Positions 1 through 16,062 of a stretch of 32,000 bases of DNA are shown piece after piece. How positions within the stretch are numbered: the stretch's first letter is position 1; each line of letters opens with the position of its first letter. Under the pieces are notes generated by a model that was not told where the DNA came from, did not search any database, and saw nothing but the letters and a program-made list of their open reading frames with translations. Position numbers and translations under genes: made by a program. This stretch comes from an uncultured Synechococcus sp. (GTDB lineage Bacteria; Cyanobacteriota; Cyanobacteriia; Thermosynechococcales; Thermosynechococcaceae), in the NCBI GenBank assembly GCA_964653145.1, contig CAZZCG010000009.1:37596-69595 (forward strand). Reading direction: 5' to 3'.

Positions 1-1602
1 CGTGTCAGCTCCAGACTCAACATCATAATTGCCAGTCCATTCATGCCAGGTACCATTCGCTGGAAAATGAGGAACTGTATAGCCAGCCAAGAAATTACCG
101 GAAAAGTTAGCAATTACGACGATTCTTGAGCCTTGCTCATTCCAGCGCGTATAGGCAAGAACCTGGGAGTTAGGGTCTTCGTGGAAAAAATCAATACTTT
201 CCGTATAAAGGGCCTGGCTATTTTTTCGCAGATGAATCAGTCCTTTATAGTATTCAAGGAGTTCCCGATTTAAATCATTTCCTAACAGATCCCATTCAAT
301 CTTAGATTGCTCTTGAGTGTTATGTTTATATTCACCAAACTCTTCTCCCATCCATATTAACGGTACACCCACTGCTGTCATCAAAACTGCTGCACCTAAT
401 TTGGCACGCTTAAATGCCTCTTCATTAAAAATATTTCGATTAGCTAGTTCTGCCAAGATATGACTGTGATCATGATTAGTCAGATAATTCACTACATTAG
501 TGGCTCCCATAAAACCCTGACGTTTACAGTCAATTACATCCTTAAGTTGTTCGATATCAAACATATCGCCGAAGATATGCCCGGTAATTACACCGCGAAA
601 ACTATCATGCCAGCAACTATCCATAGGACCATCAAAATTTGTGATAGTGGTGGTTTCCGGAATGTATTCAGCAATGTTGTAAAAGGGCTTATCTCCAGCT
701 ATTTTCTTGGTCTCGTCAACGATCCAATGCATAAAGTCATAATTGGCAATTTGTCGAGCGGCATCATAACGAATTCCATCAACATGATATTCCTCAATCC
801 AAAAGCGGACGACATCACCAATGAATTTCCATGCTGGTTTAACACCTAATTTTTCATCATATAATTCATAATTAAATTCTGGCCCCCAGTTATTATCAGG
901 ATCGCGAGGAGAATGGTGATACCAATAATCGTGGTCAATCTGAGTCAAAGGACTAGAGGATTCCGAGTGGTTATAAATACCGTCCATAATGACGCGTATT
1001 CCGCGACCATGACATTCGTCAATCAGTTTTTTTAGCTCGTCTGTCGGCCCATAATTAGATTCTGTCGCAAAAAAGTAACGCGGGTTATAGCCCCAACTAT
1101 ATTCACCCGGATATTCTTTAATCGGCATCATCTCGATTGCATTAATTCCCAGATCAGTCAGAAAGTCTAGTTTTTCGACAACATGCTTATACTTACCTCG
1201 AACATAGCGGTCAGGTTCACCTCCAGAGAAATCTGAAACATGCAATTCATAAATTACTAACTCGCGATCACTGGGCAAGGGTCTATCATCGTGTTGCCAG
1301 ACATAACTATCAACAATGACTGTCCCATTCTTGACTTGAATAATCCCATTTTGACTGGGACTGTCAATCTCCGTAGCGTAGGGATCAACCACTTCTAGCC
1401 ACTGATCCGGTTCAACAAACCAGCTTTTAGATTGCACTCGAAATTTATACTGATAACTGCCATCTTCCAGATCAACATGGGTGCGGAAATAGCCATCTTC
1501 CCCTTTTGACATTGGAATATCTTCCCAGTTAGAAAATGATCCAATTACAGCAACTCCGTTGATGTAGGGGGCAAATAATTGAAACTGAATTGGGTGTGTC
1601 AT
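1..1602 (-). CDS. GH13 alpha-amylase-family glycoside hydrolase with N-terminal CBM48/E-set-like module (3' end runs off the window)
   Basis: Absent from the ORF track because it has no stop inside the window. My reverse-strand translation from the ATG at complement of 1600-1602 reads MTHPIQFQLFAPYINGVAVIGSFSNWEDIPMSKGEDGYF...ELHVSDF...GINAIEMMPIKEYPGEYSWGYNPRYFFA...LIDECHGRGIRVIMDGIYNHSES...VDGIRYDAA...YLTNHDH. These are GH13 conserved regions I, II and IV. The frame stays open to base 1 (534 codons). Confidence 0.85.
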   Translation of the reverse strand, partial: MTHPIQFQLFAPYINGVAVIGSFSNWEDIPMSKGEDGYFRTHVDLEDGSYQYKFRVQSKSWFVEPDQWLEVVDPYATEIDSPSQNGIIQVKNGTVIVDSYVWQHDDRPLPSDRELVIYELHVSDFSGGEPDRYVRGKYKHVVEKLDFLTDLGINAIEMMPIKEYPGEYSWGYNPRYFFATESNYGPTDELKKLIDECHGRGIRVIMDGIYNHSESSSPLTQIDHDYWYHHSPRDPDNNWGPEFNYELYDEKLGVKPAWKFIGDVVRFWIEEYHVDGIRYDAARQIANYDFMHWIVDETKKIAGDKPFYNIAEYIPETTTITNFDGPMDSCWHDSFRGVITGHIFGDMFDIEQLKDVIDCKRQGFMGATNVVNYLTNHDHSHILAELANRNIFNEEAFKRAKLGAAVLMTAVGVPLIWMGEEFGEYKHNTQEQSKIEWDLLGNDLNRELLEYYKGLIHLRKNSQALYTESIDFFHEDPNSQVLAYTRWNEQGSRIVVIANFSGNFLAGYTVPHFPANGTWHEWTGNYDVESGADT

Positions 1603-2465
1603 AAGGTTCCCTTGACTTAAAAGCCAGTGTTAAATTTTCTTCAACTGTACATAAAACTCTTACAAACTGAGAAACTTCGGTCAAATAAGGGGGTCTGGTT
1701 CTTGCTGCCTCAGAACGGGTTGGGCGGTCTGGAGATCAACCATTGAGCTAGCCTGATTAATCAGGGAAATATTCAATCACCCCATCTGGAATCTTTAGCC
1801 TTTCAATTCTATTGTCTATTGATTTATTGAAATTCGGCGGAAAAATTGTCGAGATTCATGAGTGAAAATATCTTGACTGTTTTAGTTTATGTTGGATTTG
1901 CTTTAGAATTCGATTATAAGTTTGAATTATTAACTAGTACTACATAATTAGTGATGAGTTGTTATGGTGAATGAAATTCCATAGCAATTCAACGTCTTTT
2001 AAGAGGCATTAGAAGAAGGTAAAAATTAGGCTGAACGAACTATGGTAGAACCCGCAAGTTAGGGTACTCAATATATTTTTTGCCGCTTTATTTATTCATT
2101 ACCTGAGCTCGTATTAATGATGAGACCCTCTGACAGCCATTCGAATCATTGGTAAAAAGGTCACTCTTCGAGAAACCGGGTGATAAGAGGCACCAGACTC
2201 CTGCACTCTCACGTCCCCGAGACGCAACATGGATGCTTATCATCTCTCGGGAAAAACATTTGGCGAGCAATATCTATTTTGTTTGATTGAAAATAGATGA
2301 CCACAGTTCATCTTCAGGCAAGCAAAGCCCCTACATACTACAGAATCAGCGACTCACCTTACTGACAATAAATTAATTAACCTTTTGAGTTAATTTGACA
2401 AGATTAAAAATTAAAAACAGGATTAGCTAGGGTATCACGTTAAGTTTAGACCGAAAAGTGAAGTT

Positions 2466-3476
2466 TCAAGCTTCAAATTCAGAACCCCAACGAAAAATAG
2501 CTGAACCCCAGGTTAAACCTGCCCCAAACCCTGCAGTGGCGATGACGTGGCCTGGTTTTATCTTGCCTTGAATCACAGACTCTGCCAAAGCTAAGGGGAT
2601 TGAAGCCGCTGAGGTATTGCCATAGTTGGCTAAGTTACTAATGACTTTTTCCTTGGGAATTCCTAAGCGTTGGGCGACGGAGTCTAAAATCCGTTGATTC
2701 GCCTGATGGAGGACTAGCCAATCAAGATCCGCCGCTGTTAAATTAGCGCGATGGAGGGTTTTGGTGATCACTTCCGGGACTTGGGTCACGGCAAAGCGAT
2801 AGATTTCCTGGCCGTTCATATAAATCGGTTGATATTTCCCTTGGCCAATTTTGGTATGCACCAGAGATTGAGGTTCCGAGTTAAATGCCAAGGTTAAATG
2901 GTGATTGAGTTGACCGTCGCTGCGTAGTTCAAACCCAAGAAGCGCATTTTCTCTATGCGGAGTAGCTTCCATAATCATGGCGCCAGCCCCGTCACCAAAC
3001 AAGATGCAGGTGCGCCGATCTGTCCAATCTACCCAGCGAGAAAGGATATCTGCTCCAATCACCAAGGCCCGGCGATAGGTTCCGGTTTGTAAATATTGAG
3101 CGGCGGTCACCAGGCCAAAAATAAATCCAGAACAGGCTGCTGTTAGATCAAAGGCCACGGCATGGGTCGCCCCAATTTTGGCCTGAATTAAACTGGCACT
3201 CCCAAATAAATCATCGGGAGTTGAGGTGGCCAGGATGACTAAATCTATTGTGGTCGGATCAATCTTGGCCTGGGTGAGGGCATTTTGGGCAGCAGTGGTG
3301 GCCAGTTCCGTTAGGGTGATGTCTGGAGTAGAAATCCGGCGCTGAGAAATTCCAGTGCGGCTTTGAATCCACTCATCCGAAGTGTCAACTAAAGTTGTCA
3401 GGTCTTGATTACTCAGGGAAACAGGGGGCGTGGCGGCTCCAATACCAATAAAATTCACGCCAAAGGGCAACTCCAC
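2466..3476 (-). CDS. fabH: 3-oxoacyl-ACP synthase III (KAS III)
   Basis: 336-aa ORF with AACSGF (active-site Cys), HQANQRI and NYGNTSAAS motifs. The start shares base 3476 with the plsX stop, giving the classic plsX-fabH order. Confidence 0.95.
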   Translation of the reverse strand: MELPFGVNFIGIGAATPPVSLSNQDLTTLVDTSDEWIQSRTGISQRRISTPDITLTELATTAAQNALTQAKIDPTTIDLVILATSTPDDLFGSASLIQAKIGATHAVAFDLTAACSGFIFGLVTAAQYLQTGTYRRALVIGADILSRWVDWTDRRTCILFGDGAGAMIMEATPHRENALLGFELRSDGQLNHHLTLAFNSEPQSLVHTKIGQGKYQPIYMNGQEIYRFAVTQVPEVITKTLHRANLTAADLDWLVLHQANQRILDSVAQRLGIPKEKVISNLANYGNTSAASIPLALAESVIQGKIKPGHVIATAGFGAGLTWGSAIFRWGSEFEA

Positions 3477-4501
3477 TAATCTCCCTCTCCGACGACACTG
3501 GATGCTTGATAACAGGCCTGGATGCGTTGGGAAACTTGATGTTCAACAGCTTCCTGGGCCAAGCGAATCGCATTAAAAATCGACGGGGCCTGGGCACTGC
3601 CATGACTAATAATGCAAATTCCATCGACACCGAGGAGCAACCCACCGCCGTGTTCCGCGTGATCAATCCGTTGCTTAATGTTGCGGAGGTTGGGCCGTAA
3701 AAGTGCTGTGCCTAGGCGACCCCGCCAGCCTTTGGGCAGTTCTTCCCGGAGAATTTGGACAAGTACCCCACCGAGGGATTCCGCAAATTTGAGCAGGACA
3801 TTACCAACAAAGCCATCACAGACGACGACATCAAACTGCCCAGACATGACATCACGACCTTCGGCATTACCCAAGAAACTAATCCGGGGGTTATCCCGTA
3901 ACAAGCTATGGGCCTGGAGGGCAAGATCATTGCCTTTCGTATCTTCTTCGCCAATATTCAGCAGGCCAACTTTGGGGTCTTCAACACCAAGAACAAATTG
4001 GCTGTAGATCGAACCCATCAGGGCAAATTGCTCTAGGTAACGAGGTTTACAATCTACGTTGGCCCCGACATCTAAAATCAAAACAGATTTACTGGGTAGC
4101 AAAGTCGGAAACATCGCCCCAATGGCCGGTCGGTCAATACCGGGAAGTTTCCCCAAGCGCAAAAGAGCTGCTGCCATCGCCGCCCCGGAGTGTCCCGCCG
4201 AAACTACGGCATCTGCTTCCCCCTTTTTAACTAAGCTCATGGCCACATTAATTGAGGCATTGGGCTTCCGACGCAGGGCAATTAGGGGTTCCTCGTGCAT
4301 TTCCACCACATCGGCGGCGGCCACGATCTTTAAGTTAATTCCGCTTTCATGTTCATCAAGATACCGCTGGATTGGGTCAGGGTCGCCCACCAGGATAATG
4401 TCCGCTGCTAACTCCGCTTGGGCCCGAATCGCACCCGCAACGATCTCATCGGGGGCATAGTCGCCACCCATAGCATCTACCGCAATCCGTGGACGAGTCA
4501 T
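3476..4501 (-). CDS. plsX: phosphate acyltransferase PlsX
   Basis: 341-aa ORF. The N-terminus MTRPRIAVDAMGGDYAP and the SAGHSGA motif are typical of PlsX. It lies directly upstream of fabH. Confidence 0.95.
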   Translation of the reverse strand: MTRPRIAVDAMGGDYAPDEIVAGAIRAQAELAADIILVGDPDPIQRYLDEHESGINLKIVAAADVVEMHEEPLIALRRKPNASINVAMSLVKKGEADAVVSAGHSGAAMAAALLRLGKLPGIDRPAIGAMFPTLLPSKSVLILDVGANVDCKPRYLEQFALMGSIYSQFVLGVEDPKVGLLNIGEEDTKGNDLALQAHSLLRDNPRISFLGNAEGRDVMSGQFDVVVCDGFVGNVLLKFAESLGGVLVQILREELPKGWRGRLGTALLRPNLRNIKQRIDHAEHGGGLLLGVDGICIISHGSAQAPSIFNAIRLAQEAVEHQVSQRIQACYQASSVVGEGD

Positions 4502-4578
4502 TCCTAAACTCTTGTGACAAAATCCTTCAGAATTTTAGCAGATGAACTTCCCCTCCCTTGCACTTTTGGCTGAGATTC

Positions 4579-5883
4579 ATGACAGCATCTCCCGACTTTT
4601 CCGCTGATTTTCCCAGGCCAGGCCAAGGGCCCTTACTCAGGCAAATTGCCCCGGAACACCAAACGGTCTGGCTTGCAGAGCAGGAAACCACCGTAATTGG
4701 GCGGGATCCACAAGCCTGCCAGGTTGTCCTAGATTCCCAGCGCTATGGATCCGTTTCGCGGCACCATGTTTGTTTACGGCCGGGCTCCTCAATCACTCAG
4801 CCCTGGGTTTGGCAAATTGAAGACCTGAACAGCATCAACGGAACATTTTTGAACAATCGCCGGATTTCGGCCCCCCACCCTTTAATTCCAGGTGATCGGT
4901 TTCGGTTGGGCACTGAGGGGCCGGAATTTGAATTTACCTATGTGTCTGCCACTGAAATTCCCGCCACCATTCTGCGTTCCCCCGTCAGTAGTTTGACGCT
5001 TTCCCAGTTGATGCCCCTGCTGGCCGCTGGTCAGGATTTGGCCCGCAAAGCCTATTTGATGCCGGGAATGGTGACGGTGTTGGCGGTGATTTTGTTGTTT
5101 ATGACCACAGCCCAAGGGGAACTGTTCAAGGTAGTGCTGGCGATTTATCTGGGCCTGGCCGGCTATTACTTTGTCTATCAACTCTGTGGTAAACCAAAAC
5201 CAATTTGGGTCTTGGCGGCGGCGATGGGGTTAGAAATTTTGCTGATTCGCTCCCCTATGGCTTTTGGCCTGGCCTGGTTTTTTCGTCAAGTCTTACCCGG
5301 CACCGTGAATCCAGCCCAGATGAATGTGGGGCAGCAATTTGTTGGTTATTTCTTTGGTGCGGGGTTAATGGAGGAGTTACTCAAGGCAATTCCGGTTTTC
5401 CTGGCCTGGGGCCTGGGGCGATTGCTGCGGTCTCCGAGACGGGAACAGGTGGGGGTTTGGGAACCACTGGATGGGATTTTGCTAGGCACGGCGGCGGCCC
5501 TAGGCTTTACTTGGCTCGAAACCCTGGGGCAATATGTTCCCAACTTGGCCAGCCAAACCGGAGACTTAACTGCATTGCAGGTGCTGATTCCCCGGGTCAT
5601 TGGTTCGGTGGCCGGACACATGGCCTATAGTGGCTATTTTGGCTATTGCATTGGCTTGAGTGTGCTGTATCCGAGACATCGCTGGTTTTTGCTGGGTTTA
5701 GGCTGGTTGGTAGCAGCTTTAATCCATGCCCTTTGGAATACTTCAGCCACCAGTTTTGGGCCGCTGGGTTTGGTCGGAGTCGGAATTCTGGCCTATGCCC
5801 TCCTCACCGCCACAATTCTTAAGGCTAGGCAACTCTCACCGAATCGCGCCCTCAACTTTGCAACCCGCTTCTATGAACGTTAA
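4579..5883 (+). CDS. FHA-domain / PrsW-like polytopic membrane protease fusion protein
   Basis: The ORF track starts at TTG 4558; I prefer ATG 4579 (MTASPDF...). The N-terminal FHA pattern is TVIGRD...VSRHH...NSINGTFLNNRRI...GDRFRLG. It is followed by multiple hydrophobic helices carrying MEELLK and HALWN motifs (EExxK / HxxxN, as in the PrsW family). Confidence 0.7.
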   Translation: MTASPDFSADFPRPGQGPLLRQIAPEHQTVWLAEQETTVIGRDPQACQVVLDSQRYGSVSRHHVCLRPGSSITQPWVWQIEDLNSINGTFLNNRRISAPHPLIPGDRFRLGTEGPEFEFTYVSATEIPATILRSPVSSLTLSQLMPLLAAGQDLARKAYLMPGMVTVLAVILLFMTTAQGELFKVVLAIYLGLAGYYFVYQLCGKPKPIWVLAAAMGLEILLIRSPMAFGLAWFFRQVLPGTVNPAQMNVGQQFVGYFFGAGLMEELLKAIPVFLAWGLGRLLRSPRREQVGVWEPLDGILLGTAAALGFTWLETLGQYVPNLASQTGDLTALQVLIPRVIGSVAGHMAYSGYFGYCIGLSVLYPRHRWFLLGLGWLVAALIHALWNTSATSFGPLGLVGVGILAYALLTATILKARQLSPNRALNFATRFYER

Positions 5884-6658
5884 TCCTAACCCCCAGGCCT
5901 GGCGGTACATCCCCCCAATCACAGCCCCAGGCCTCGTCCAGATGGCTATTGATACTTGGCTATGGGAGCAACATCATCTTGGCCAACACCCCTCCTGTTT
6001 GCGGTTCTATCATTGGCAGCCCGCCGCAATTTCCTATGGCTATCATCAAACCGACCTACCGGAACATTGGCACACCTTGGCCTGGGGGGAAACGCACTTA
6101 GATGTGGTTAGACGGCCCACTGGGGGACGGGCTGTTTTGCACCAAGGAGATTTAACCTATGCTCTAGTCACAACCCTACCCAAGCTTTCCCGTCGCCAGG
6201 CCTATGGGCTGTTGTCGCAATTTTTGATTCAGGGCTGTCAACGTTTAGGAATGGAACTGAGACTGGGATCTGATTTTCGCAACTATCAACGTCATGTCAA
6301 CTGTTTTGCCTCCGCAACCCATGCTGATTTGGTTTTAGATGACGGTTACAAACTCATTGGCAGTGCCCAGGCCTGGAAAGGGTCAACGGTTCTCCAACAT
6401 GGTTCAATCCGACTGAATCCCGATCCTAGGCTGTGGCAAGAGGTTTTCCAGGCCCCGCTGACCACCACAACTCTTTCCCTGCCCTCAGAAGCAACATTGA
6501 TGTCTTCCTTGACCGCGGCTTTAACTGATGTCTTCCAGGCCCCCCTCATTGAGAACGCGATGACCGCAAGGGAGTGGCAAGAAATTCAACAACAGTCGAG
6601 AACATCCTGGGATTTGGTCGAGATGGATGCTTTGTATTGTCCTGCCGGGCAAAATTGA
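5873..6658 (+). CDS. lipoate/octanoate-protein ligase family protein (BPL_LplA_LipB-type catalytic domain)
   Basis: The track ORF begins at 5726 inside the upstream gene. The first plausible start is ATG 5873 (MNVNPNPQAW...), which overlaps the upstream stop by 11 nt. RRPTGGRAVLHQGDLTYALV and YKLIGSAQAWK resemble the LplA/LipB core (RRxxGGxAVxH ... KxxGxAQ). Confidence 0.65.
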   Translation: MNVNPNPQAWRYIPPITAPGLVQMAIDTWLWEQHHLGQHPSCLRFYHWQPAAISYGYHQTDLPEHWHTLAWGETHLDVVRRPTGGRAVLHQGDLTYALVTTLPKLSRRQAYGLLSQFLIQGCQRLGMELRLGSDFRNYQRHVNCFASATHADLVLDDGYKLIGSAQAWKGSTVLQHGSIRLNPDPRLWQEVFQAPLTTTTLSLPSEATLMSSLTAALTDVFQAPLIENAMTAREWQEIQQQSRTSWDLVEMDALYCPAGQN

Positions 6659-6783
6659 AATACCCAATGACAGAACTCCTCAGGGTTATCAGGTTTTTTA
6701 TTGCCTACCCATGCAAAATGACGATGATGACCCCAGGTTGATTGCTTAAATGCACTGGCGAACAACGGTAAATCTATTTGAGA

Positions 6784-7212
6784 CTACCATCGCCAGTATT
6801 TTTTCCCTTTCCAGAAAACACCAACAACCATCCCGACCAATATATTTTGATTGATGCCCAATAAACTAGAGGGAACATTCGCAAAATCGGAAATTAGGGA
6901 CACAATAATCATCAGGACTAGCAGACATAAAACTAGGCCCCAGAGTGTGCTGGCATAGATGGCTCCAGGGGAAAAAAACGTCTCCAATAGCCAAACTGAT
7001 ACTGCCCCCAGGCCAATACTCAGCAGAATAATCAAGATCAAGCCCCAGGGCGGTGAAAAGATTAGATCAATCCAAGATTGCGACTGAGGCACGTAACTGT
7101 AGGTGGAAATAAAAACTAAGTCAAAAATTTTACCCAGGGTGACAGTCACCACGGCGGTGGAAATGAGGGGTATCCAAGGGAGTGATTTGAAGCTTTGCCA
7201 TGGATCAAACAT
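6784..7212 (-). CDS. small multi-pass membrane protein, unknown function
   Basis: 142-aa ORF with about 4 hydrophobic segments. It contains one copy of the host heptamer (CCAGGCC at 7010-7016). No recognisable catalytic motif. Confidence 0.5.
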   Translation of the reverse strand: MFDPWQSFKSLPWIPLISTAVVTVTLGKIFDLVFISTYSYVPQSQSWIDLIFSPPWGLILIILLSIGLGAVSVWLLETFFSPGAIYASTLWGLVLCLLVLMIIVSLISDFANVPSSLLGINQNILVGMVVGVFWKGKKYWRW

Positions 7213-7225
7213 ATTGATGACGCTC

Positions 7226-9799
7226 TTATTTAGCTAGAACAAAGTTAATGAGTTTACCGGGCACAACAATCACCTTTTTCACGGTTTGGTCTGCTAGGTA
7301 GCGCGCCCCAACTTCAGAGTTTTTTGCATAGGCTTCTAGCTCCTCGGCACTGGCCTGGGCGGGAACTTGAATCACCCCGCGAGTTTTACCCATCACCTGA
7401 ATCACTAGGGAAATTTCATCGGCCACTAGGGCAGTTGGATCAACACTGGGCCAGGCCTGGAGATGAATAGATTTTTGATGGTTTTGATTGGGTAACTGCT
7501 GCCACAGGTCTTCAGCAATGTGTGGGGCAAACGGTGACAGCAACAGCAACAGCGTTTCAATTCCCTCTTGATAGATTGGACTGGCAATTAAATCCGCCCC
7601 ATCACCCAGGGCATTACTCAACTTCATTAACTCCGAAATCGCAGTGTTGAACTGATAATCCGTCGCTAAATCCTCGCTAATTTCGTGAATTGCAGTGTGA
7701 ATTGCCCGACGAAGCTTTTTCTCATCAGGACTCAACTCAGAACTGGGGGCTTGAACTTGAGGATTTTTTTCAACATAGCCCGTGACCAACCGCCAAACTC
7801 GATTTAAGAAGCGAAACTGTCCTTCCACATCGGCATCATCCCACTCCAAATCTTTTTCGGGAGGGGCTTTGAACAAAATAAACATCCGGGCTGTATCTGC
7901 ACCATATTTTTCAATCACATCCCCCGGCGCGACACCGTTGTGTTTAGACTTGGACATTTTTTCATAGACCACATCCAAGGCAATCCCCGACTCGGGATCA
8001 ACAGGATTTGCCGGATCTTTGACGAGGCTGGGAATCACATATTTACCCGTTTGTGGGTTTTTGTAGGTTTTCCCCTGCACCATGCCCTGGGTTAGTAACC
8101 GCTGAAAGGGTTCACCAAAGTTGATCAGGCCCCGATCCTTGAGGACTTTTGTAAAAAAGCGGGAGTAAAGTAAATGTAAAATCGCGTGTTCAATGCCACC
8201 AACATACTGATCCACGGGCAACCAATCGTTCACTAATTCGGAACTAAACGGGGCCTGGTCATTTCGGGCATCGGCATAGCGCAGGAAATACCACGAGGAA
8301 TCAATAAACGTATCCATGGTGTCCGTTTCCCGCTTGGCTGGTTGACCGCAGCTAGGACATGGGACATTCACCCAATCCTCCAGTTGTGCCAGTGGAGAAG
8401 CGCCCCGACCAGTGAATTCGACATTTTCTGGTAAGACTACGGGTAAATCTGCTTCCGGTACCGGCACTGCACCACAATCGGGACAATGGATCACCGGAAT
8501 TGGTACACCCCAATAGCGTTGACGCGAAATGAGCCAATCCCGCAAGCGGTACTGAATTCGGGCCTTGCCCCAGCCTTTTGACTCGGCAAACTTAATAATT
8601 TCGTTTTTGGCAACGGCGGACTCAAGACCATCAAACTCCCCAGAATTGATCAGGATTCCTGGGTCGGTGTAGGCCTGATCCAATTTCACCAACTCTGGCC
8701 TGGCAGGGATAATTACTGTTGTGAGGGATAACTGATTCTGTTGGGCAAATTCATAATCCCGTTGATCGTGGGCCGGTACTCCCATCACTGCCCCAGTCCC
8801 GTACTCCACTAAGACATAATCGGCAATCCAGATGGGAATTTCTTCACCGGTAAAGGGGTTGATTGCACTTCCTCCTGTCGCCAGGCCCCGTTTTGGTTTA
8901 TCTTCGGCTGTCCGTTCTAGTTCCGATTCATGGCTAATGGATTCAATAAATTCCGTTACCTTGGCCTGGTTTGCGGGGGTAGTCACGGTCTGCGTCAAGG
9001 GATGTTCAGGAGCTAAAACCACATAGGTGACGCCAAACACTGTATCGGGTCGAGTCGTAAACACCCCAATTTTTTGATCAGAGCCGACAATCGGAAACTC
9101 CAAATACGCCCCCGTCGATTTGCCGATCCAGTTGGCCTGCATCAGTTTCACCCGTTCTGGCCAGCCGGTGAGGGTTTCTAAATCCTGTAACAGAGCCTCG
9201 GCATAGTCCGTAATTTTCAAAAACCATTGCCGCAGGAGTTTCCGCTCCACAATGGCCCCGGATCGCCAGGATCGCCCTTCACTGTCCACCTGTTCATTGG
9301 CCAAAACCGTTTGATCAATGGGATCCCAGTTCACCGCGGCTTCTTTTTGGTACGCTAACCCGGCCTGGAAAAACTGCAGAAACAGCCATTGTGTCCAGCG
9401 ATAATAGTCCGGGCGGCAGGTGGCCACTTCCCGCGACCAATCATAGGACAGCCCCAACCGTTTCAATTGGGTTTGCATCTGGGCAATGTTGGCCTCTGTC
9501 CATTGGGCTGGCGGAATTCCCCGTTCAATGGCGGCATTTTCGGCCGGCAAGCCAAAGGCATCCCACCCCATTGGATGTAGAACCCGATAGCCCTGCATTT
9601 TTTTGACCCGCGCAATCACATCAGTAATCGTGTAATTCCGGACATGGCCCATGTGGAGATTACCTGAGGGGTAGGGAAACATGGAGAGGGCATAAAATTT
9701 CGGCTGACTGGTATCCGTTCCCGTTAAATCTAAGCCAGACTCCTGCCAACAGGCCTGCCATTTGGGTTCAATGTCCTGGGGCTGATACCGATTCTCCAC
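7226..9799 (-). CDS. leuS: leucine--tRNA ligase
   Basis: 857-aa ORF with the class I signatures NLHMGH (HIGH-type) and KMSKS. It has LeuRS-typical length and an editing-domain insertion. Confidence 0.97.
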
Positions 9800-10015
9800 G
9801 GGTAATTCCTAATTTTGCAGTAAACATGAAAGGTCTAGGTTCTAGGGTACAGGCTCCAGGGAAAAGTTTGGCAGTAGGACAAGGGCGCAGGGCATTGCCA
9901 CTCAACCCTAAACAGGCCCCACTCACCAGGATTTTGTCAGAAACATAATTCCGGCCCTGCCCTCACTAAATTTTCTACGGGCTGAAAGGGTAATTTTGTT
10001 CCCACGATAATAGAT

Positions 10016-10159
10016 ATGGCTAGACTAGAAGCAGTTGAATGGCTCTTTCTGATGCCCCAGACCAACATTAACGAAGCAAAAGCCGATCTTTCAACTTTGA
10101 TTGATGCTGCACTGGTGGGAGAAGAAGCCAATACCTTGTTTTATGGTGAGTCTGAGTGA
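10016..10159 (+). pseudogene. shortened Phd/YefM-type antitoxin remnant
   Basis: Hand translation gives MARLEAVEWLFLMPQTNINEAKADLSTLIDAALVGEEANTLFYGESE*. The segment MPQTNINEAKADLSTLIDAALVGEE matches the N-terminal consensus of Phd/YefM-type VapB antitoxins, but the protein ends about 40 aa early. Its stop overlaps a GTG (GTGA) that opens the PIN remnant. Confidence 0.5.
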
Positions 10160-10272
10160 GAAATTTGCTTGATACTCATACTTTGCTCTGATGGATAGAT
10201 TAAGTTACCCGTTTATCATCAAATACTCTGAAGGTTATTGGGGACTATGATGGCCTAGTTTCAATCTTGCAT
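10156..10272 (+). pseudogene. PIN/VapC toxin N-terminal remnant with in-frame stops, truncated at the 3' side
   Basis: Reading from GTG 10156 gives MRNLLDTHTLL*WID*VTRLSSNTLKVIGDYDGLVSIL. This matches the canonical VapC start (LLDTHxLLWWxxDxxxLS...), but TGA and TAA interrupt it. Homology stops just before the stop of the intact opposite-strand vapC at 10278. Confidence 0.55.
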
Positions 10273-10277
10273 CAGAT

Positions 10278-10676
10278 TTACCAACGCTCTAACTGTAAAC
10301 CCTCAATATAGCTAAAGTCAGAATCATCAGAAACTAATATCCAATTCTGGCTAATACATTGAGCAGCGATCCAAATATCATTTGTTGGAATAGGTCTGTC
10401 TTTTCTTTTTAGGTGCAATCTAACTTGGGCATAAACTAATCCACCCTCATTTGTAAGTGGTTTGACTGTGCAAGAAAAAATCAATGCTCCAAAAGCTGAA
10501 TAATTTTGTGAAGAGCGAGAGGAATTAAGCGCATCATCAAGTAGTTCACCAATAACCACTACAGGCAAGAAAACTTCGGGTAAATTTATAATTCTTTCCC
10601 TAAGAGAGGAGTCACCATTGAGATAACGAATCGCAACTGAAGTATCTAGGGCAATATCACCACTCATTGGCATCAA
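10278..10676 (-). CDS. vapC: PIN-domain VapC-type toxin
   Basis: 132-aa ORF with the PIN acidic residues in context (IALDTS, VIGELL, TNDIWIAA, SDDSDF). It overlaps the upstream small ORF by 20 nt. Confidence 0.85.
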   Translation of the reverse strand: MMPMSGDIALDTSVAIRYLNGDSSLRERIINLPEVFLPVVVIGELLDDALNSSRSSQNYSAFGALIFSCTVKPLTNEGGLVYAQVRLHLKRKDRPIPTNDIWIAAQCISQNWILVSDDSDFSYIEGLQLERW

Positions 10677-10866
10677 CCTGACGATAATCAGATTTTATAG
10701 TTTCTAGAATTTCCTGGGCATCCGAATCACTGAGAATCCCTGAAAGCTTCAGTAGGTTTTCATTATTTGTAGTGCTTTCTAACTGTTTAAGGAAATTAAA
10801 AACAGTTTCAATCTGCTCGTCAGAACTAGTCGAAATTTCTTGAAGAAGCTGTTCTCGTTTTTCCAT
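10657..10866 (-). CDS. putative cognate antitoxin (family not recognised)
   Basis: 69-aa acidic ORF directly upstream of vapC and overlapping it. The call rests on position and size only. Confidence 0.6.
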   Translation of the reverse strand: MEKREQLLQEISTSSDEQIETVFNFLKQLESTTNNENLLKLSGILSDSDAQEILETIKSDYRQVDANEW

Positions 10867-10898
10867 TTTGCATTCATCTCTTTAATTTTTTCTTTCTC

Positions 10899-11022
10899 CC
10901 AGGCCCCGTAGGCTCCCATTCTAACCTCTGCCACCTGAGTCAAAATCCCCAGGCCCCGCCCCCAACTTTCTAAACTTCTCTAAAGAAAAGTCAATTTTGT
11001 TGAATTTTTATCAATAGACCAG
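10899..11022. repeat. 124-bp direct repeat, copy 1 (left of the R-M cassette)
   Basis: CCAGGCCCCGTAGGCTCCCATTCTAACCTCTGCCACCTGAGTCAAAATCCCCAGGCCCCGCCCCCAACTTTCTAAACTTCTCTAAAGAAAAGTCAATTTTGTTGAATTTTTATCAATAGACCAG matches 13167-13290 at every position but one (G/C in CCTGAGTC vs CCTGACTC). Confidence 0.95.
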
Positions 11023-11053
11023 CGAAAATTCTCTACGCCAGGCGAAGGGTCGT

Positions 11054-11059
11054 TAGAAT
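11054..11059 (+). promoter_or_regulatory. candidate -10 box (TAGAAT) for the REase-candidate gene
   Basis: GAAGGGTCGTTAGAATA lies 18 nt upstream of ATG 11078. The same block, GAAGGGTCGCTAGAATA, recurs upstream of the J-domain gene. No transcript data are available. Confidence 0.3.
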
Positions 11060-11077
11060 AAAGTTTTTACCTAAGTT

Positions 11078-11854
11078 ATGACTCCTTCCCAAAATGCTAA
11101 TTCTAAAAAAGATAAAGTGGATTTCAATGCAATTAAGCTGTCGTCAGACTCTTTGGATGTATTTCTAAGAGTTTTTCAAGATGCTTTTGAAGAATACAAT
11201 TATCAATTTCTTGATGCACACCGAGCAATTCTTACAAGCTGCTATCAACATATTGAACTTGCTCCATCTCTAACAGCAGCATCACAAGCACAATTAGCAA
11301 AGGCATGGTTGAAAAAATATAATGATGGGTATCAAAGTAGGATATCAAGACGGATTTCTAAAGCTTCTGGAACAAAAGTTGATCCGATTATTAGCAGTAT
11401 TATTAACGCAAGGCTGACCCACTTAACAAACCAACACCTAGAGCAAATTAATTATGCCCATAGACTCTCAATGTCTGCTGAAAATATTTTAGGGTTGCTG
11501 TTAGAAGAATTTTTAGCTGAACAGTTAAGCGATTATGGTTGGCATTGTTGTTGGGGAGAAACACTACGCCATGTAGATTTTTGTCACAATGACGGCTCAC
11601 TTTTACAAATCAAGAATCGTAGTAATTCAGAAAATAGTTCCTCATCAAGAGTAAGAATTAACAAGCCTATAGAAAAGTGGTTTAGAGTAGATGCTAAAAA
11701 AGGAAGCTATCAATGGTCATATTTTAACCAAAGATATGAAACAGATCGTTTTTCTGAAGAGAGATTTATTGCATTTGTACAACAAGTTTTGAAAAATAAT
11801 CCTGAAGCTCTGGCCGTAGAAGAAAGTAATCCTTGGAAAAACACAAGTAACTAA
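11078..11854 (+). CDS. putative type II restriction endonuclease (PD-(D/E)xK-like), family not recognised
   Basis: 258-aa ORF convergent with the C5-methyltransferase, with the two stop codons abutting (TAA 11852-54 and the complement of TCA 11855-57). The segment HVDFCHNDGSLLQIKNRS fits a D...(E/Q)xK nuclease core. The assignment is positional plus motif-level only. Confidence 0.5.
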   Translation: MTPSQNANSKKDKVDFNAIKLSSDSLDVFLRVFQDAFEEYNYQFLDAHRAILTSCYQHIELAPSLTAASQAQLAKAWLKKYNDGYQSRISRRISKASGTKVDPIISSIINARLTHLTNQHLEQINYAHRLSMSAENILGLLLEEFLAEQLSDYGWHCCWGETLRHVDFCHNDGSLLQIKNRSNSENSSSSRVRINKPIEKWFRVDAKKGSYQWSYFNQRYETDRFSEERFIAFVQQVLKNNPEALAVEESNPWKNTSN

Positions 11855-13108
11855 TCAAACAAAAGTTAGGGAGAGTTGACCAATAGACAAATTCTGAGTT
11901 TCAGGTTTAATATCTTTCATCCAGCTTTGGTCATCTGTATTCCGATAGCGAGAATACAGAAAATCTGGATAAATTATAGGTGTTTCGTCACTTAAGTGAG
12001 TTAATAACATTCTGGCAATCGCACGTCCTAAAGAACAAGGCACGGCATTTCCAACTTGACGATATTGATCAAGTAAAGACCCAGCAATGATCCAATTATC
12101 AGGAAATTCTTGAATCCGCTTATATTCTTCAATACTCAGAGGCCTATCTTCTTCTGGATGGGCTAAATCTGTGGCTGGCATAGCAGGATGAGTCACTAAA
12201 GTTGGAGAGGGTTTATCCCAGGCCAAGCGCCGATAAAAACCTGTTTTCCCACCTCCAGCAAAATAAGATGCTCCCAACGCCTCTTGCTGTAATTCTGCTG
12301 GTAAATCTCGCCAATATTGTCCAGGCCTAAGGAGTCGATAATACTTAAGTCGTTTTTCTGGGAATTTAACGAAATGATGTTCAGATTCAGATAAACCTGC
12401 CAAAGCCTCTCTTAAAGTACGCCATTTGGGAAGACTATATAGACCATTTTCTGAGTGGGTTGGAGTTAAGTAGGGAAGCTTTTGCCCATCACGACTACAA
12501 GCAATGACAACTCGTTCTCGTTGTTGAGGGGAGCCAAAGTTTGCTGCATTGTACAAATTAAATGAAACACTATATCCAGCTTCTTTAAGTTTTTGTATGA
12601 CAAATAGTAATGCACCACCTCGCTGTTCTTCTTGAGAAAGAGATGGAAAATCATAACCTCTCATTTCATGGGGACGATGTTTTAACGGTGCTGATAATAA
12701 TCCTCTAACATTTTCAATGACTAGAAACTTTGGATATAGCTCAATCACTAGGTCAATGAAGGTTAGAAATACATTACCCCGTTCATCATTAAATCCCTGA
12801 CGTTTTCCAGCACTACTAAAGGCCTGGCAAGGAGGACCACCGACAATGAGATCAATTTCATCCGTTGGTTTCAATCCGGCTTTTTCTCTGATTTCTGCGG
12901 CTGTGTAATCTCGAATATCACCGATTAAGGGAATATCCGGTCGGTTTATTTCAATGGTTTTGCGAGCGGCGGGATCAACTTCACAGGCCAGGATCACCTC
13001 AATTCCCTCTTTCTCCAGGCCAAGGTCTAATCCCATACAACCCGAAAAAAAACTCAAGGCCTTCAATTCAGGTTTACTAGCGGAATGAGTCTGACGATGT
13101 TGATTCAT
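11855..13108 (-). CDS. DNA (cytosine-5)-methyltransferase
   Basis: 417-aa ORF with the full C5-MTase motif set: [10 protein letters not shown] (I), GGPPCQAFS (IV), ENVRGL (VI), QQRERVVI (VIII) and GNAVP (X). Confidence 0.93.
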
Positions 13109-13166
13109 AGTTGCTTTGAAATTTGGTGGCCTTGGCTATACCTAATAATGAAGCATCTAACATGAT

Positions 13167-13290
13167 CCAGGCCCCGTAGGCTCCCATTCTAACCTCTGCC
13201 ACCTGACTCAAAATCCCCAGGCCCCGCCCCCAACTTTCTAAACTTCTCTAAAGAAAAGTCAATTTTGTTGAATTTTTATCAATAGACCAG
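13167..13290. repeat. 124-bp direct repeat, copy 2 (right of the R-M cassette)
   Basis: See copy 1: 123/124 identical, same orientation. Confidence 0.95.
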
Positions 13291-13321
13291 AAAAAACTCA
13301 TCAGGACAAAAGAAGGGTCGC

Positions 13322-13327
13322 TAGAAT
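13322..13327 (+). promoter_or_regulatory. candidate -10 box (TAGAAT) for the J-domain/HNH operon
   Basis: GAAGGGTCGCTAGAATA lies 21 nt upstream of ATG 13349 and parallels the block at 11044-11060. Confidence 0.3.
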
Positions 13328-13348
13328 AATATTTTTTAGTGCAAGACT

Positions 13349-13900
13349 ATGGCCTCATCATCCAAAAAGCTCACCCCAAGGATTGAAGCTGAGATTTCTC
13401 GACTATCAGGGGTTCTTAGCTGTGATCCAAAAATTCTCAGTGATTTCGCCTACTTTGTTAAGGGGATTAAACCACCGCCACCACCTAAACCTAAAGCCTT
13501 AACTTTTCTACAACTCAAAGAAGCCGTATATAAGCATTTCAACGTGAAAACCACTCCTGAGCTTAAAGAGTCGGGCAATTTTCAGATGGCTACAAATGGG
13601 ATGAAGTTGAACTTAGGAAAAAAAGAGGCCTGGGAGGATGTTTATCGGAAGTGGATTGGTATTTTGCCCAACGAGGACGGAGAAACAGGCAAGGACTGCA
13701 TCAACGGTATCAACATCTTTAAATATGATTTGCCTTGGCGGGTGTTTGGCCTGGATCGGCATACGGCAACTGAAGCAGAAATTAAGGAAGCCTATCGCAA
13801 TTTAAGTAAGAAATATCATCCTGATAATCCTGAAACCGGAGATGATCGAATTTTTCAACGGATTAATATTTTCTATCGTAGTTTATTAGGTAAAGGTTAA
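13349..13900 (+). CDS. J-domain (DnaJ-like) protein with an unrecognised N-terminal region
   Basis: 183-aa ORF. The C-terminal ~55 aa, VFGLDRHTATEAEIKEAYRNLSKKYHPDNPETGDDRIFQRINIFYRSL, form a canonical J domain with the HPD tripeptide. The N-terminal ~125 aa have no motif I recognise and include a PPPPPKPK linker. Confidence 0.8.
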   Translation: MASSSKKLTPRIEAEISRLSGVLSCDPKILSDFAYFVKGIKPPPPPKPKALTFLQLKEAVYKHFNVKTTPELKESGNFQMATNGMKLNLGKKEAWEDVYRKWIGILPNEDGETGKDCINGINIFKYDLPWRVFGLDRHTATEAEIKEAYRNLSKKYHPDNPETGDDRIFQRINIFYRSLLGKG

Positions 13901-14943
13901 TGGCAAAGCAAATATGGATTACTTCAGCCAAGTTGATAGAAATTTTGAGGATTTCTGAGAGGGAGTTACATGAAATTGAGAAATTTTTTGATGCTGATCC
14001 CTACGATAAGTGGAACCTTGAGAATGGAAAGGATTACAGAATTATCAATCAATCAAATGGATTAAGGGAATACACAGATACAGGAGCATATGCTATCGCC
14101 TCGTATTTGGAGCACAGAAACAGATCAGAAAATAAAGGTTTTCTAGGTTGGATCAGAGAGTTCGTTCGCAAGCTGAAGGGAGACGTTCGCAAAACATTCA
14201 TTAAAGAGAAAATCCTTTATAATAGCTCATCCTTAGTAAAGCGCAGAAATTACTTTTACTTATGTGAGAAGGACTTGATCTCTATCTTTGGCACAAGAAA
14301 GGACTATTTTTATAAGATTTTTGAGTTGGCGCAAAAGGAAGAAAAACCTTTGATTGTTGATTTGGATTATGATGACACTTTTGGAAATGGAATGAGATAT
14401 TATTCTACAAGTGGCATTTTAAAGTTAGCCAAGGTATTTAATCGAGAACTAACTAATAAAAATCGCCAAGAATGGTGTGAAGATGTTGGTGCGGTTATTA
14501 TACCTTTTACACATGAAATCGAGAAAATACATATACAGCGAAATCAGAGAATTACCTCTACTAAAAATGCTGCCAAGAAACGGGATAAATCTAGATGTCG
14601 CATTACTAAAGAAAGTCCACGGGATAGTAGTATTTCCCCAATTAAACTAGCTGCTCATCATTTATACTCTGCGGCCCACTATCCCCATTTAGCTGACTCT
14701 GTAGATAATATCATTACAATTAAGGAGGAAATCCACGATCATTTTCATCAAGTTATGGGTGGAAAAGGTAAGCCCTGTACGATTGATGACTTTATTAACT
14801 ACATCAAGAATTACTATCCTGATAAATTAGAATTGATTACTTGGTTGCACGGTCAAAAAGCTAAAATTCCCTCAGAGCCTCTTTCAAAAAATGCACCAAT
14901 GGTCTTATATTTACCACCAAAGCAAGTGATGCAAAACAATTAA
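13900..14943 (+). CDS. HNH-motif nuclease with a duplicated N-terminal module
   Basis: 347-aa ORF whose ATG overlaps the upstream stop (TAATG). The C-terminal segment CRITKES...LAAHHLYSAAHYPHLADSVDNIITIKEEIHDHFH matches the HNH pattern (HH...N...H..H). The N-terminus holds two similar ~65-aa segments, ending LREYTDTGAYAIASYL and MRYYSTSGILKLAKVF. Confidence 0.75.
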   Translation: MAKQIWITSAKLIEILRISERELHEIEKFFDADPYDKWNLENGKDYRIINQSNGLREYTDTGAYAIASYLEHRNRSENKGFLGWIREFVRKLKGDVRKTFIKEKILYNSSSLVKRRNYFYLCEKDLISIFGTRKDYFYKIFELAQKEEKPLIVDLDYDDTFGNGMRYYSTSGILKLAKVFNRELTNKNRQEWCEDVGAVIIPFTHEIEKIHIQRNQRITSTKNAAKKRDKSRCRITKESPRDSSISPIKLAAHHLYSAAHYPHLADSVDNIITIKEEIHDHFHQVMGGKGKPCTIDDFINYIKNYYPDKLELITWLHGQKAKIPSEPLSKNAPMVLYLPPKQVMQNN

Positions 14944-14971
14944 GTTATGACGTTGAGGGAATTCTTGAAAG

Positions 14972-15071
14972 CTACAACCGCCCGATGGCAATCCCCATGA
15001 GCATGACCCGATCAATCACATAAATCACCCCATTATCAGCCTCAATATCTTGGATGATCACCGTGGCATTT
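14972..15071 (-). pseudogene. orphan 3'-terminal fragment of a diverged cupS/fasciclin gene (33 codons including stop)
   Basis: The reverse strand reads [32 protein letters not shown], versus [32 protein letters not shown] at the true cupS end (15640-15739). The core 94 nt (14978-15071 vs 15646-15739) differ at 10 positions. Confidence 0.85.
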
Positions 15072-15090
15072 AATGAGCTAGTATTTCTGA

Positions 15091-15303
15091 TCAAATCTCA
15101 AATAAATGACGAGGTAGCCCTGATTGGCGAATGATAGATTGTAATGTGCCGATTTTGAGTTCGGGATGATTGGGAACGGGGACAGTGATTGTTGTGTCTT
15201 TTGTTTTAAGTTGCATAATGATATGGCTTCCGCTTTGCCGTATTTCGATAAAGTCATAGGCTGCCAGAATTTTGCACACCTCGCGTCCAGATAAAATACG
15301 CAA
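15091..15303 (-). CDS. hicA: HicA-family mRNA-interferase toxin
   Basis: The track ORF (to 15387) overlaps hicB. I start at the TTG at complement of 15301-15303, 1 nt after the hicB stop. The product (M)RILSGREVCKILAAYDFIEIRQSGSHIIMQ... matches the HicA consensus (LSGxEvxKxL...GFxxxRQxGSH). Confidence 0.8.
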   Translation of the reverse strand: MRILSGREVCKILAAYDFIEIRQSGSHIIMQLKTKDTTITVPVPNHPELKIGTLQSIIRQSGLPRHLFEI

Positions 15304-15304
15304 C

Positions 15305-15532
15305 TTACCCAACAGTAATTTCCAACCGGGTGATAAAAATCTCTGAACGTAAGCGATTGGTAATTTCCGAAGGATCGGCAACATCAAAGAAAAGTTCTAA
15401 GGCTTCAATCAAGTTGTTTTTGGCTTCTTCAATCGTGTTTCCTTGGCTAGCAATATCAAGTTCGGGACATAGGGATACATATCCATCCCCTTCTCGTTCG
15501 ATAATTGCAGTAAAAGGCTGAACTTGTTTCAT
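15305..15532 (-). CDS. hicB: HicB-like (UPF0150) antitoxin
   Basis: MKQVQPFTAIIEREGDGYVSLCPELDIASQGNTIEEAKNNLIEALELFF is typical of a HicB N-terminal domain. I prefer ATG 15532 over the track start at 15565. It lies directly upstream of hicA. Confidence 0.8.
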   Translation of the reverse strand: MKQVQPFTAIIEREGDGYVSLCPELDIASQGNTIEEAKNNLIEALELFFDVADPSEITNRLRSEIFITRLEITVG

Positions 15533-15639
15533 TGGTTTTCTATTTGTTTTTATTAGGATAATCAAATTTTACTTGAGACGGACTATACCTCCCAGCTTAA
15601 ACGATTGAGCTTTGAGCAGCAAAAATTACAAAAAGGTAC

Positions 15640-16062
15640 TTAAAGCCGCCCAATGGCAATTCCCATCAGCATCACCCGATCAATTACATGAATCACGCCA
15701 TTGTCCGCCTCAATATCTGGGATGATCACCGTGGCATTTTTGGCTTCAAACTTACCATTACTGGCATTAATCGGAATCACAGAGCCTTCCACCGAGGTTA
15801 ACTTGTCCACACCGACTAAATCCGCTTTTTTGTAGATTCCTGGCACCACATGAAATGTCAAAATCCGAGCCAACTGCGGGGTATTTTGCACCAAGGTTTG
15901 AATCGTGCCACCGGGTAACTGAGCAAACGCAGCATCCACGGGCGCAAATACGGTAAAGGGGCCTGGGCTGTTGAGGACATCCACTAAACCCGCAACCTTC
16001 ACAGCCGTCACTAAGGTTTGAAAATTCTCATTCCCGACTGCAATTTCCACAATCGTTGCCAT
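15640..16062 (-). CDS. cupS: fasciclin (FAS1)-domain protein; position and size consistent with CupS of NDH-1MS
   Basis: 140-aa ORF with FAS1 signatures ([23 protein letters not shown]). It sits immediately 3' of cupA, where cupS sits in the Synechocystis ndhF3-ndhD3-cupA-cupS operon. As far as I recall, CupS has a fasciclin-like fold. The name is a positional inference. Confidence 0.7.

Follow-up and report, generated by a model that had tools for sequence, protein, structure and literature searches.

Chromosomal integron arrays carry attC repeats of about 120 nucleotides (nt), the VCRs of Vibrio among them, and gene conversion homogenises dispersed paralogues such as the duplicated tuf genes and the rRNA operons. 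The insertion of restriction-modification (R-M) units with long target duplication was reportedly described by Nobusato et al. in 2000. Furuta, Abe & Kobayashi 2010 (PMC2853133) define this mode of insertion, and gene fusion at the junction and a case in Microcystis are also reported there. The locus described here lies in a stretch of 32,000 nt, referred to below as the window, from an uncultured Synechococcus sp. (GenBank assembly GCA_964653145.1, contig CAZZCG010000009.1, positions 37,596 to 69,595 of the forward strand). In it a restriction endonuclease (REase) gene and a DNA methyltransferase (MTase) gene are enclosed by two almost identical 124-nt direct repeats, just upstream of an operon formed by a J-domain gene (J) and a partner with an HNH-like motif (together J-HNH). 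R-M genes flanked by long direct repeats are already known; what this locus adds are a fusion of the nuclease to the start of a host gene, probable concerted evolution of the flanks, and rearrangement joints associated with a short motif.

The 124-nt repeat is probably the recently homogenised part of an older duplication, about 205-215 nt long, of the 5' control region of the J operon. The locus is old and has been reshaped repeatedly, and the near-identity of its repeats is secondary. Near-identical flanking repeats are often read as the mark of a recent insertion, and four relatives of the locus show that such dating is wrong here. The J protein of the source organism is 95% identical to that of Synechococcus sp. 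PCC 6312 and places it in that strain's clade; the related loci that were read are those of PCC 6312 itself (L003), of a Logan contig (L016) and of the assemblies GCA_006364995.1 (L014) and GCA_006365075.1 (L017).

The repeats, the genes between them and the start of J

The left unit (U_L, 10899-11022, beside a vapB-like gene) and the right unit (U_R, 13167-13290, upstream of J) have the same orientation and differ at one of their 124 positions, G at 10939 facing C at 13207 (99.2% identity, 123/124). A 28-mer of the repeat matches the window at these two places only, and it gave no match in 100 shuffles. The 2,144 nt between the copies hold the R and M genes only. A first-pass annotation, made from the sequence of the window, had described near-identical 124-bp repeats in the same orientation around a convergent REase/C5-MTase pair, and both statements are upheld, the second by RE_SinI and DNA_methylase matches between the copies.

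The homology of the two flanks extends beyond the 124-mer. In an alignment of all copies it passes through a shared TAGAAT box and an ATG into about nine codons, which gives a total of about 205-215 nt. Identity drops at the boundary, from 123/124 in U to 59/89 (66%) in the following segment, D (Fisher p = 3e-12). On the left, D_L (11023-11077, plus strand) lies upstream of the REase gene and has its -10 box TAGAAT at 11054-11059; on the right, D_R (13291-13348, plus strand) is the promoter region of J, with TAGAAT at 13322-13327. D_L is a diverged paralogue of that region: together with the first 27 nt of the REase gene (11023-11104) it is 66% identical to the J-side equivalent and 73% identical to the vapB-side copy of L014, which is the closest. 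D_R is 79-85% identical to the regions upstream of J in L016, L014 and PCC 6312. The rightward TAGAAT is kept in L016, PCC 6312 and L017, and L014 has the variants TAAAAT, TAGTAT and TATAAT. The block GAAGGGTCG(T/C)TAGAATA is found at 11044-11060 and 13312-13328 only, and no shuffle reached two or more occurrences. This conserved block downstream of each repeat had been noticed before and is confirmed, but the homology does not end near it and continues about nine codons past the ATG.

The REase gene begins inside the duplicated segment. Its start, ATGACTCCTTCCCAAAATGCT, aligns with the start of J, ATGGCCTCATCATCCAAAAAGCT, and the J-derived start codon with the N-terminal extension (MTPSQNANSKKD) occupies 11078-11113 on the plus strand. 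SinI-family homologues begin at the equivalent of window REase residue 12-13, so that the window protein has an extension of 11-12 codons which they lack. Because the N-termini of the J proteins are native to J in this clade, the direction of copying was from J to the REase side. On this alignment the REase gene is fused to a duplicated start of J and lies behind a copy of the J promoter region, and the rightward TAGAAT and the J-derived ATG should drive REase as they drive J. That the repeats are copies of the region upstream of the J operon, and that the REase stands behind such a copy, had been proposed in the first-pass annotation; the alignment agrees with both proposals, even the J-derived start codon being used in the gene.

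The REase gene (11078-11854, plus strand) encodes a type II enzyme of the SinI/AvaII family (Pfam RE_SinI, 6.7e-35; PADLOC REase_II, 1.5e-45), with homologues 63-71% identical across cyanobacteria. It abuts, in convergent orientation, the gene of a C5 cytosine DNA methyltransferase (11855-13108, minus strand; Pfam DNA_methylase, 3e-61; TIGR00675, 3.1e-53), 5' remnants of which are found in PCC 6312 and L014. A SinI-family REase with a partner C5 MTase is the pairing of SinI/AvaII-type systems. Between the MTase gene and U_R lies its 5' leader or spacer (13109-13166), which is outside the repeat, orthologous in L016 (83%) and unrelated to the flank on the vapB side. The recognition site predicted for the REase is GGWCC. 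This sequence was observed three times in the window (626, 12834 and 20494) against about 53 expected, and 0-5 times in the related loci against 20-38 expected, being avoided in every locus of the clade; such avoidance in all lineages indicates long exposure. One of the three window sites falls within the MTase gene. Avoidance is equal in PCC 6312 (0 against 36 expected) and L014 (1 against 28), both of which are without an intact R-M pair here.

In Ca. S. calcipolaris G9 the homologous R-M genes are not enclosed by repeats and are found apart from J-HNH, which means that flanking repeats are not a property of this R-M family. The G9 MTase has 476 amino acids (aa) (L008 10745-12175) and gives a faint HTH_17 match in its N-terminal part. 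This part is apparently missing from the window MTase, which has 417 aa and starts 15 residues before the methylase domain, which may indicate that the flanking unit has assumed its control.

An artefact confined to one assembly is an unlikely source of the repeat, since two independent Logan assemblies, whose J protein is identical to that of the window, both break at points where the repeat would interrupt a k=31 graph: one contig (L002) begins on the first base of the repeat and the other (L001) begins 30 nt before its right end. In L002 positions 1-130 (window 13167-13296; SRR10912416) the left-copy variant G is joined to the J-side flank, which means either that the variable site is polymorphic or that the contig arose as a graph chimera spanning the repeat.

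An nhmmer profile of the repeat found copies at this locus only, all in one orientation, in about 240 kb of sequence consisting of the window and the related loci, which leaves the earlier suggestion of a cassette dispersed elsewhere in the genome without support. An exact 24-mer of the repeat had no match in the genome collection. A degenerate pattern of the repeat unit gave only chance coding matches in that collection (a cobA-type gene, L005, and a Corynebacterium contig), only a chance match in metagenome contigs (a ThuA-like open reading frame (ORF), L007) and no match in viral contigs. PCC 6312 fits this pattern yet was not returned; the genome collection is therefore evidently without the clade, and the scans cannot count genomic copies. 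A plasmid search with the island matched the MTase gene alone, and distantly. The reading of U as a dispersed repeat similar to a miniature inverted-repeat transposable element (MITE) was dropped, there being no inverted repeats involving U and no copy outside the J-upstream locus in these 240 kb, and so were attC-like and terminator-like readings, as the single-stranded DNA fold was no better than that of shuffled sequence on both strands and for the PCC 6312 units.

Age of the structure and probable exchange between its copies

In the chpXY-ndh block PCC 6312 is the outgroup at 82-83%, and the window, L014 and L016 are mutually 85-87% identical. L016 has the order REase-MTase-U-J with orthologous junctions, and its contig stops within the REase gene. 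PCC 6312 has neither vapBC, the toxin-antitoxin (TA) genes to the left of U_L in the window, nor a REase gene at the J locus; about 150 nt of the 5' end of the MTase gene (79% identical) stand directly to the left of two tandem 124-nt units, A and B, which are 74% identical with a period of 124 and are followed by J. In L014 the order vapC-vapB-U-D-J', where J' is a fragment of the start of J, is collinear with window positions 10263-11081 (85.6% over 822 nt). After J' a hicA/hicB pair occupies the slot of the R-M genes and is followed by a 5'-truncated U, D and J; further to the left lie a vapB fragment, a partial U and a 5' remnant of the MTase gene (tblastx 1.3e-5). Downstream of its vapB-side copy, L014 showed no remnant of the REase gene. 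L017 (634 nt) has vapC-vapB-U-D-J' with an in-frame stop after 14 codons. L014 also has, at 6940-8335, the 3' part of U with the J promoter and the first 90 nt or so of J ahead of a DUF4760 gene; four U-derived copies are thus found in 3 kb of this locus, and the debris lies upstream of the intact vapBC.

Since the window, L016 and PCC 6312 all have MTase sequence adjoining U, and L014 still has a remnant of it, the R-M genes were at this site before these four lineages split. Between the lineages that share the structure, DNA differs by 13-18%. The window and L014 have the vapB-U junction and the diverged D_L in common, and the vapB-like orthologues of L014 and L017 have the same junction to the repeat. 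D_L groups with the vapB-side copy of L014 (L014iii), with which it has four shared derived sites as well as CCTAAGT..ATGA, and D_R groups with the J-side copies of L014, L016 and PCC 6312. Moreover, the window, L014iii and L017 have J' fragments with nearly the same end point. The shared junctions, the grouping of D and the ends of J' fit one old duplication, from U to about nucleotide 33-39 of J. The first-pass annotation had the R-M unit duplicate about 124 bp on insertion; the MTase remnants of PCC 6312 and L014, the intact R-M of L016 and the longer homology show that the event is not recent and that the duplication is not of 124 bp.

Copies that old cannot be 99% identical by descent, since orthologous copies of U diverge by at least 6%: relative to the window the difference is 6% in L016 (8/124 sites), 17% in L014iii and about 35-40% in PCC 6312. 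Even if divergence were 6%, finding one difference in 124 nt would have p = 0.004. The 124-mer is most likely a recent gene-conversion tract, written from the J-side copy into the vapB-side copy. Such a tract should leave a near-identical block in a diverged paralogue, with the donor's states in the converted copy, and this is what the alignment contains. At 12 informative sites U_L has the J-side state at 11 and the L014 vapB-side state at none (0/12), and both window copies are of the J-side type at those 11; in addition, the window U matches the J-side U of L016 at 94% identity and L014iii at 83%. On these site states and identities the donor was probably the J-side copy, U_R, and U_L the recipient. 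The C at 13207 is derived, every other copy aligned there having G. Strand exchange would have been confined to U because the paralogues are still similar only there.

The history suggested for the locus would then be the following. The start of J would have received an R-M pair by an insertion that duplicated a long target, as for the hicAB cassette described below, and the duplicated piece would have comprised the upstream element U, the -10 box, the start codon and about 9-12 codons of J. One copy stayed before J, while the other, beside vapB, now serves as promoter region, start and N-terminal extension of the REase. The MTase reads out of the left edge of the J-side copy, as vapB does from the other copy. 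The step in identity would be due to the recent conversion from the J side to the vapB side, confined to U.

Several points weigh against this history. The empty site that the first-pass annotation expected in relatives (vapBC, one repeat, J-HNH) was looked for and not found among PCC 6312, L014, L016 and L017, the last being too short to tell. L016 ends in the REase gene, so that its vapB-side copy is unread and conversion rests on one genome. The contrast of site states between U and D is weak when taken alone (vapB-side state at 0/12 against 4/15 sites). The vapB-side D of L017 is of the J type, which implies several conversions or duplications, and the four U-derived copies of L014 and the tandem pair of PCC 6312 do not agree with a single simple event. 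Furthermore, the promoter assignments discussed below are consensus readings of conserved hexamers where the scan tool called none, and the copy count covers only about 240 kb. As to L017, its D segment is 81-84% identical to J-side copies and the 5' half of its U has strongly diverged, which suggests conversion tracts of different extent in different lineages.

The near-identity of the repeats could also be a matter of youth, if an R-M unit had recently inserted between vapB and J with a duplication of no more than 124 bp. Insertions of this kind have been described (PMC2853133), the neighbouring hicAB cassette is one, and 99.2% identical copies, a bracketed segment of R and M only and a low G+C content are what such an insertion would leave. 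However, three further lineages, 13-18% apart in DNA, have R-M genes or their remnants at the same U junction, the homology runs some 80-90 nt further at 66% only, the vapB-U-D_L arrangement is common to L014 without R-M in that slot, and the avoidance of GGWCC in all lineages indicates long exposure; a recent insertion is accordingly very unlikely. If instead both copies are old, purifying selection on a strongly constrained U might alone have kept them alike, with no conversion. Between the window and L016, U is 93.5% identical, above the adjacent spacer and D (78-83%; p = 3e-4) and above coding genes, and this conservation above its flanks suggests a function. Nevertheless, orthologous copies of U have changed at 8 of 124 sites in L016, by 17% in L014iii and by about 35-40% in PCC 6312, the tandem units of PCC 6312 are only 74% identical, and one paralogue difference remains improbable (p = 0.004) at 6%, which makes selection without exchange quite an unlikely explanation. 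A crossover could give the same pattern as conversion: a circle of D_L, R-M genes, spacer and U would be excised through U x U and would integrate again through U, in the cell of origin or in a different one, leaving two hybrid, almost identical copies of U and the D segments untouched. The expected pattern, U identical and D diverged with an abrupt step where U meets D on the right, is the one observed, and 124 nt is enough homology for RecA-mediated exchange. It would also account for the R-M genes and U being better conserved against L016 (86-94%) than D (78%) and the 347-aa partner of J (69%), J itself being at 84%. The sequence of one genome cannot tell such a crossover from gene conversion; no empty site or circle junction was seen, Logan contigs cannot phase across the repeat, and we regard the crossover as unlikely.

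A different kind of explanation would make U a mobile or recombination element, MITE-like or attC-like, by which a site-specific system captures R-M, hicAB, vapBC and DUF4760 genes. The cargo between copies of U does differ, being R-M in the window and hicAB in L014, L014 has as many as four U-derived copies and PCC 6312 two in tandem with a period of 124, and TA and R-M cargo is also that of chromosomal integron arrays. On the other hand, the window ORFs tested to the left and right of the repeats (1-7212 and 10016-16062) include neither an integrase nor a transposase, none is called in the related loci, and U has no inverted repeat or hairpin (fold z-scores -0.9 to +0.2). Uneven fragments of the flanking genes are included in the copies (vapB', 33-90 nt of J', the J promoter), as in segmental duplications, and all of them have one orientation at one locus in the 240 kb. 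No copies came from the viral, metagenome and genome scans, the last in a collection evidently without the clade. Such an element is therefore the most doubtful of these explanations, and a recent conversion within an old duplication of the J-operon start probably describes the repeat pair best.

Insertion and loss of cassettes and the CCAGGCC motif

About 2 kb to the right of the R-M genes a hicA/hicB-like cassette lies between direct repeats (14973-15739), with its genes at 15091-15565 on the minus strand (Pfam HicA, 3.1e-19) and its insert at 15072-15640. The repeats (14973-15071 and 15641-15739) are 99 nt long and 88% identical and are the duplicated 3' end of a fasciclin gene. In L016 (3740-3930) this site is uninterrupted, with one copy of the sequence and collinearity on both sides. 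From this comparison hicAB is an insertion with long target duplication seen together with its empty site, and the mechanism that had been proposed for the R-M unit is borne out in this lineage for hicAB. It offers a clean cyanobacterial case of long target duplication for a TA cassette. PCC 6312 has a 300-nt version of this duplication (L003 11625-11924 and 13014-13313) and, between hicB and the fasciclin gene (12773-12986), a 42-nt tandem repeat in five copies (61-76% identical to the reference copy), part of which matches window 15584-15613.

For the R-M pair the original mechanism of insertion is taken by analogy, because no empty site was found. Both R and M lie inside the repeats, the insert is shorter than 20 kb, it holds no other mobile-element gene and the repeat is longer than 30 bp, as in the target-duplication cases already described. 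An origin by insertion with long target duplication fits this anatomy and possibly explains it.

In the first-pass annotation the repeats were taken to allow precise excision of the R-M unit by recombination between them. L014 is the sole case of R-M loss with a readable junction, and the loss went another way: at the joint CTCCAGGCCAAG the D segment is joined to about codon 30 of the MTase gene over a shared run of about 11 nt which contains CCAGGCC. The loss in L014 was therefore a microhomology deletion and not an excision between repeats. The same heptamer forms the left edge of U, and the tandem units of PCC 6312 are bounded by CCCAGGCC. CCAGGCC/GGCCTGG has 94 sites in the window where about 3 are expected (about 2.9 per kb, an excess of about 30 times). 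The sites include 10899, 10949, 13015, 13167 and 13217, and several rearrangement joints of the locus fall on the motif. HIP1 (GCGATCGC) is absent from the window. In PCC 6312 only the palindrome CAGGCCTG has been reported as enriched (PMC5861425), and in Ca. S. calcipolaris G9 HIP1 is present and the CCAGGCC motif is not. The link of several rearrangement joints to a clade-specific motif bears on the role of HIP-like motifs.

Surroundings, control signals and comparison with known systems

To the left of the repeats, vapC (10278-10676, minus strand) encodes a PIN-domain toxin (Pfam PIN, 7.6e-12; NCBIfam VapC, 2.6e-15, under the model's curated cutoff) and has an orthologue in L014. It overlaps the gene of a vapB-like antitoxin (10657-10866, minus strand; weak Pfam VAPB_antitox, 0.007), whose start codon is 32 nt to the left of U_L. 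To the right, J (13349-13900, plus strand; Pfam DnaJ, 8.6e-10) forms an operon with the gene of its 347-aa HNH-motif partner (13900-14943, plus strand), and it is the 5' region of this operon that was duplicated. The pair of J and partner is conserved across cyanobacteria and has another context in Ca. S. calcipolaris G9. The partner had no Pfam, NCBIfam or PADLOC match and has an HNH-like motif near its C-terminus. At the DNA level it is 69% identical between the window and L016 and 84% between the window and L014, with neighbouring genes at 84-91%, which suggests allelic or diversifying variation.

The G+C content of about 9800-15600 is 35-42%, compared with about 50% around it. The window has no tRNA genes, which ruled out a tRNA-targeting island. 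With Rfam nothing passed the gathering thresholds in the window, and around the repeats only a chance RAGATH-12 match in the REase gene was obtained at E <= 1. Synteny breaks between leuS and vapC (window 9800-10277); in the relatives L012 and L013 a glyoxalase gene and then bioB, and not vapBC, lie upstream of leuS, and the other half of a split R-M, sought in these two leuS neighbourhoods, gave nothing related. The J locus of PCC 6312 is adjoined on its left by a CBS-domain gene.

U also contains a candidate leftward promoter (10918-10943, minus strand), with TTGACT at 10943-10938 and TAGAAT at 10923-10918; the sites in U_R are at 13186-13211. The spacer would be 14 nt, which is non-canonical, or 16 nt if the -35 element were TTTTGA. 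These hexamers lie just upstream of vapB in U_L and of the MTase gene in U_R, and they are conserved in L016 and L014iii. It is in the -35-like hexamer that the two copies of the repeat have their sole mismatch (TTGACT vs TTGAGT). A consensus promoter scan called no promoter inside U. If the leftward hexamers are functional, the REase would have obtained a J-type promoter and the MTase a vapB-type promoter, and U could be a promoter or operator in both directions.

A wider and rather unlikely idea is that the start of the J-HNH operon is a dedicated, integrase-free capture site for defence and TA cassettes, each capture duplicating U, the J promoter and the start of J. If this were so, each newcomer would be wired to host control, the REase behind the J promoter and the MTase behind a vapB-type leftward promoter. 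CCAGGCC would supply the recombination joints and conversion of U would keep the cassettes co-regulated, and L014 would be an array in which four U/J' remnants separate DUF4760, a decayed R-M, vapBC and hicAB. Whether or not such a site exists, an R-M pair at this locus would be embedded in host regulation through the fusion to a host start and the copied host promoter region, and the copies of the repeat would keep exchanging sequence long after the original event.

Compared with the SinI/AvaII R-M systems, the locus has the same RE_SinI REase and C5 MTase, genes that are convergent as in G9, and avoidance of GGWCC. It differs in that the REase extension, together with the region upstream of it, is copied from a host gene, and in that its MTase is without the helix-turn-helix-like N-terminal extension of the G9 homologue. 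With chromosomal integron arrays it shares repeats of about 124 nt that separate TA and defence cassettes, and cargo that differs between relatives; unlike them it has no integrase among the ORFs tested and no attC-like palindrome, its repeats contain promoter and coding fragments, and the orientation of the cassettes is mixed. The concerted evolution of tuf genes and rRNA operons is similar in that a near-identical block lies in a diverged paralogue and the type of the donor can be identified from orthologues, whereas here the block is a short non-coding promoter-proximal element flanking a defence cassette and is represented by one tract in one genome. In anatomy the locus resembles R-M insertions with target duplication, with about 2.1 kb of R and M, no mobility gene, repeats of more than 30 bp derived from the sequence of the insertion point, and a gene fusion at the junction. 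In contrast to those cases no empty site was found, the structure is old and present in several lineages, the identity of the repeats is bimodal (99% and 66%) and needs later homogenisation, and the R-M genes of L014 were lost by microhomology deletion and not by recombination between the repeats.

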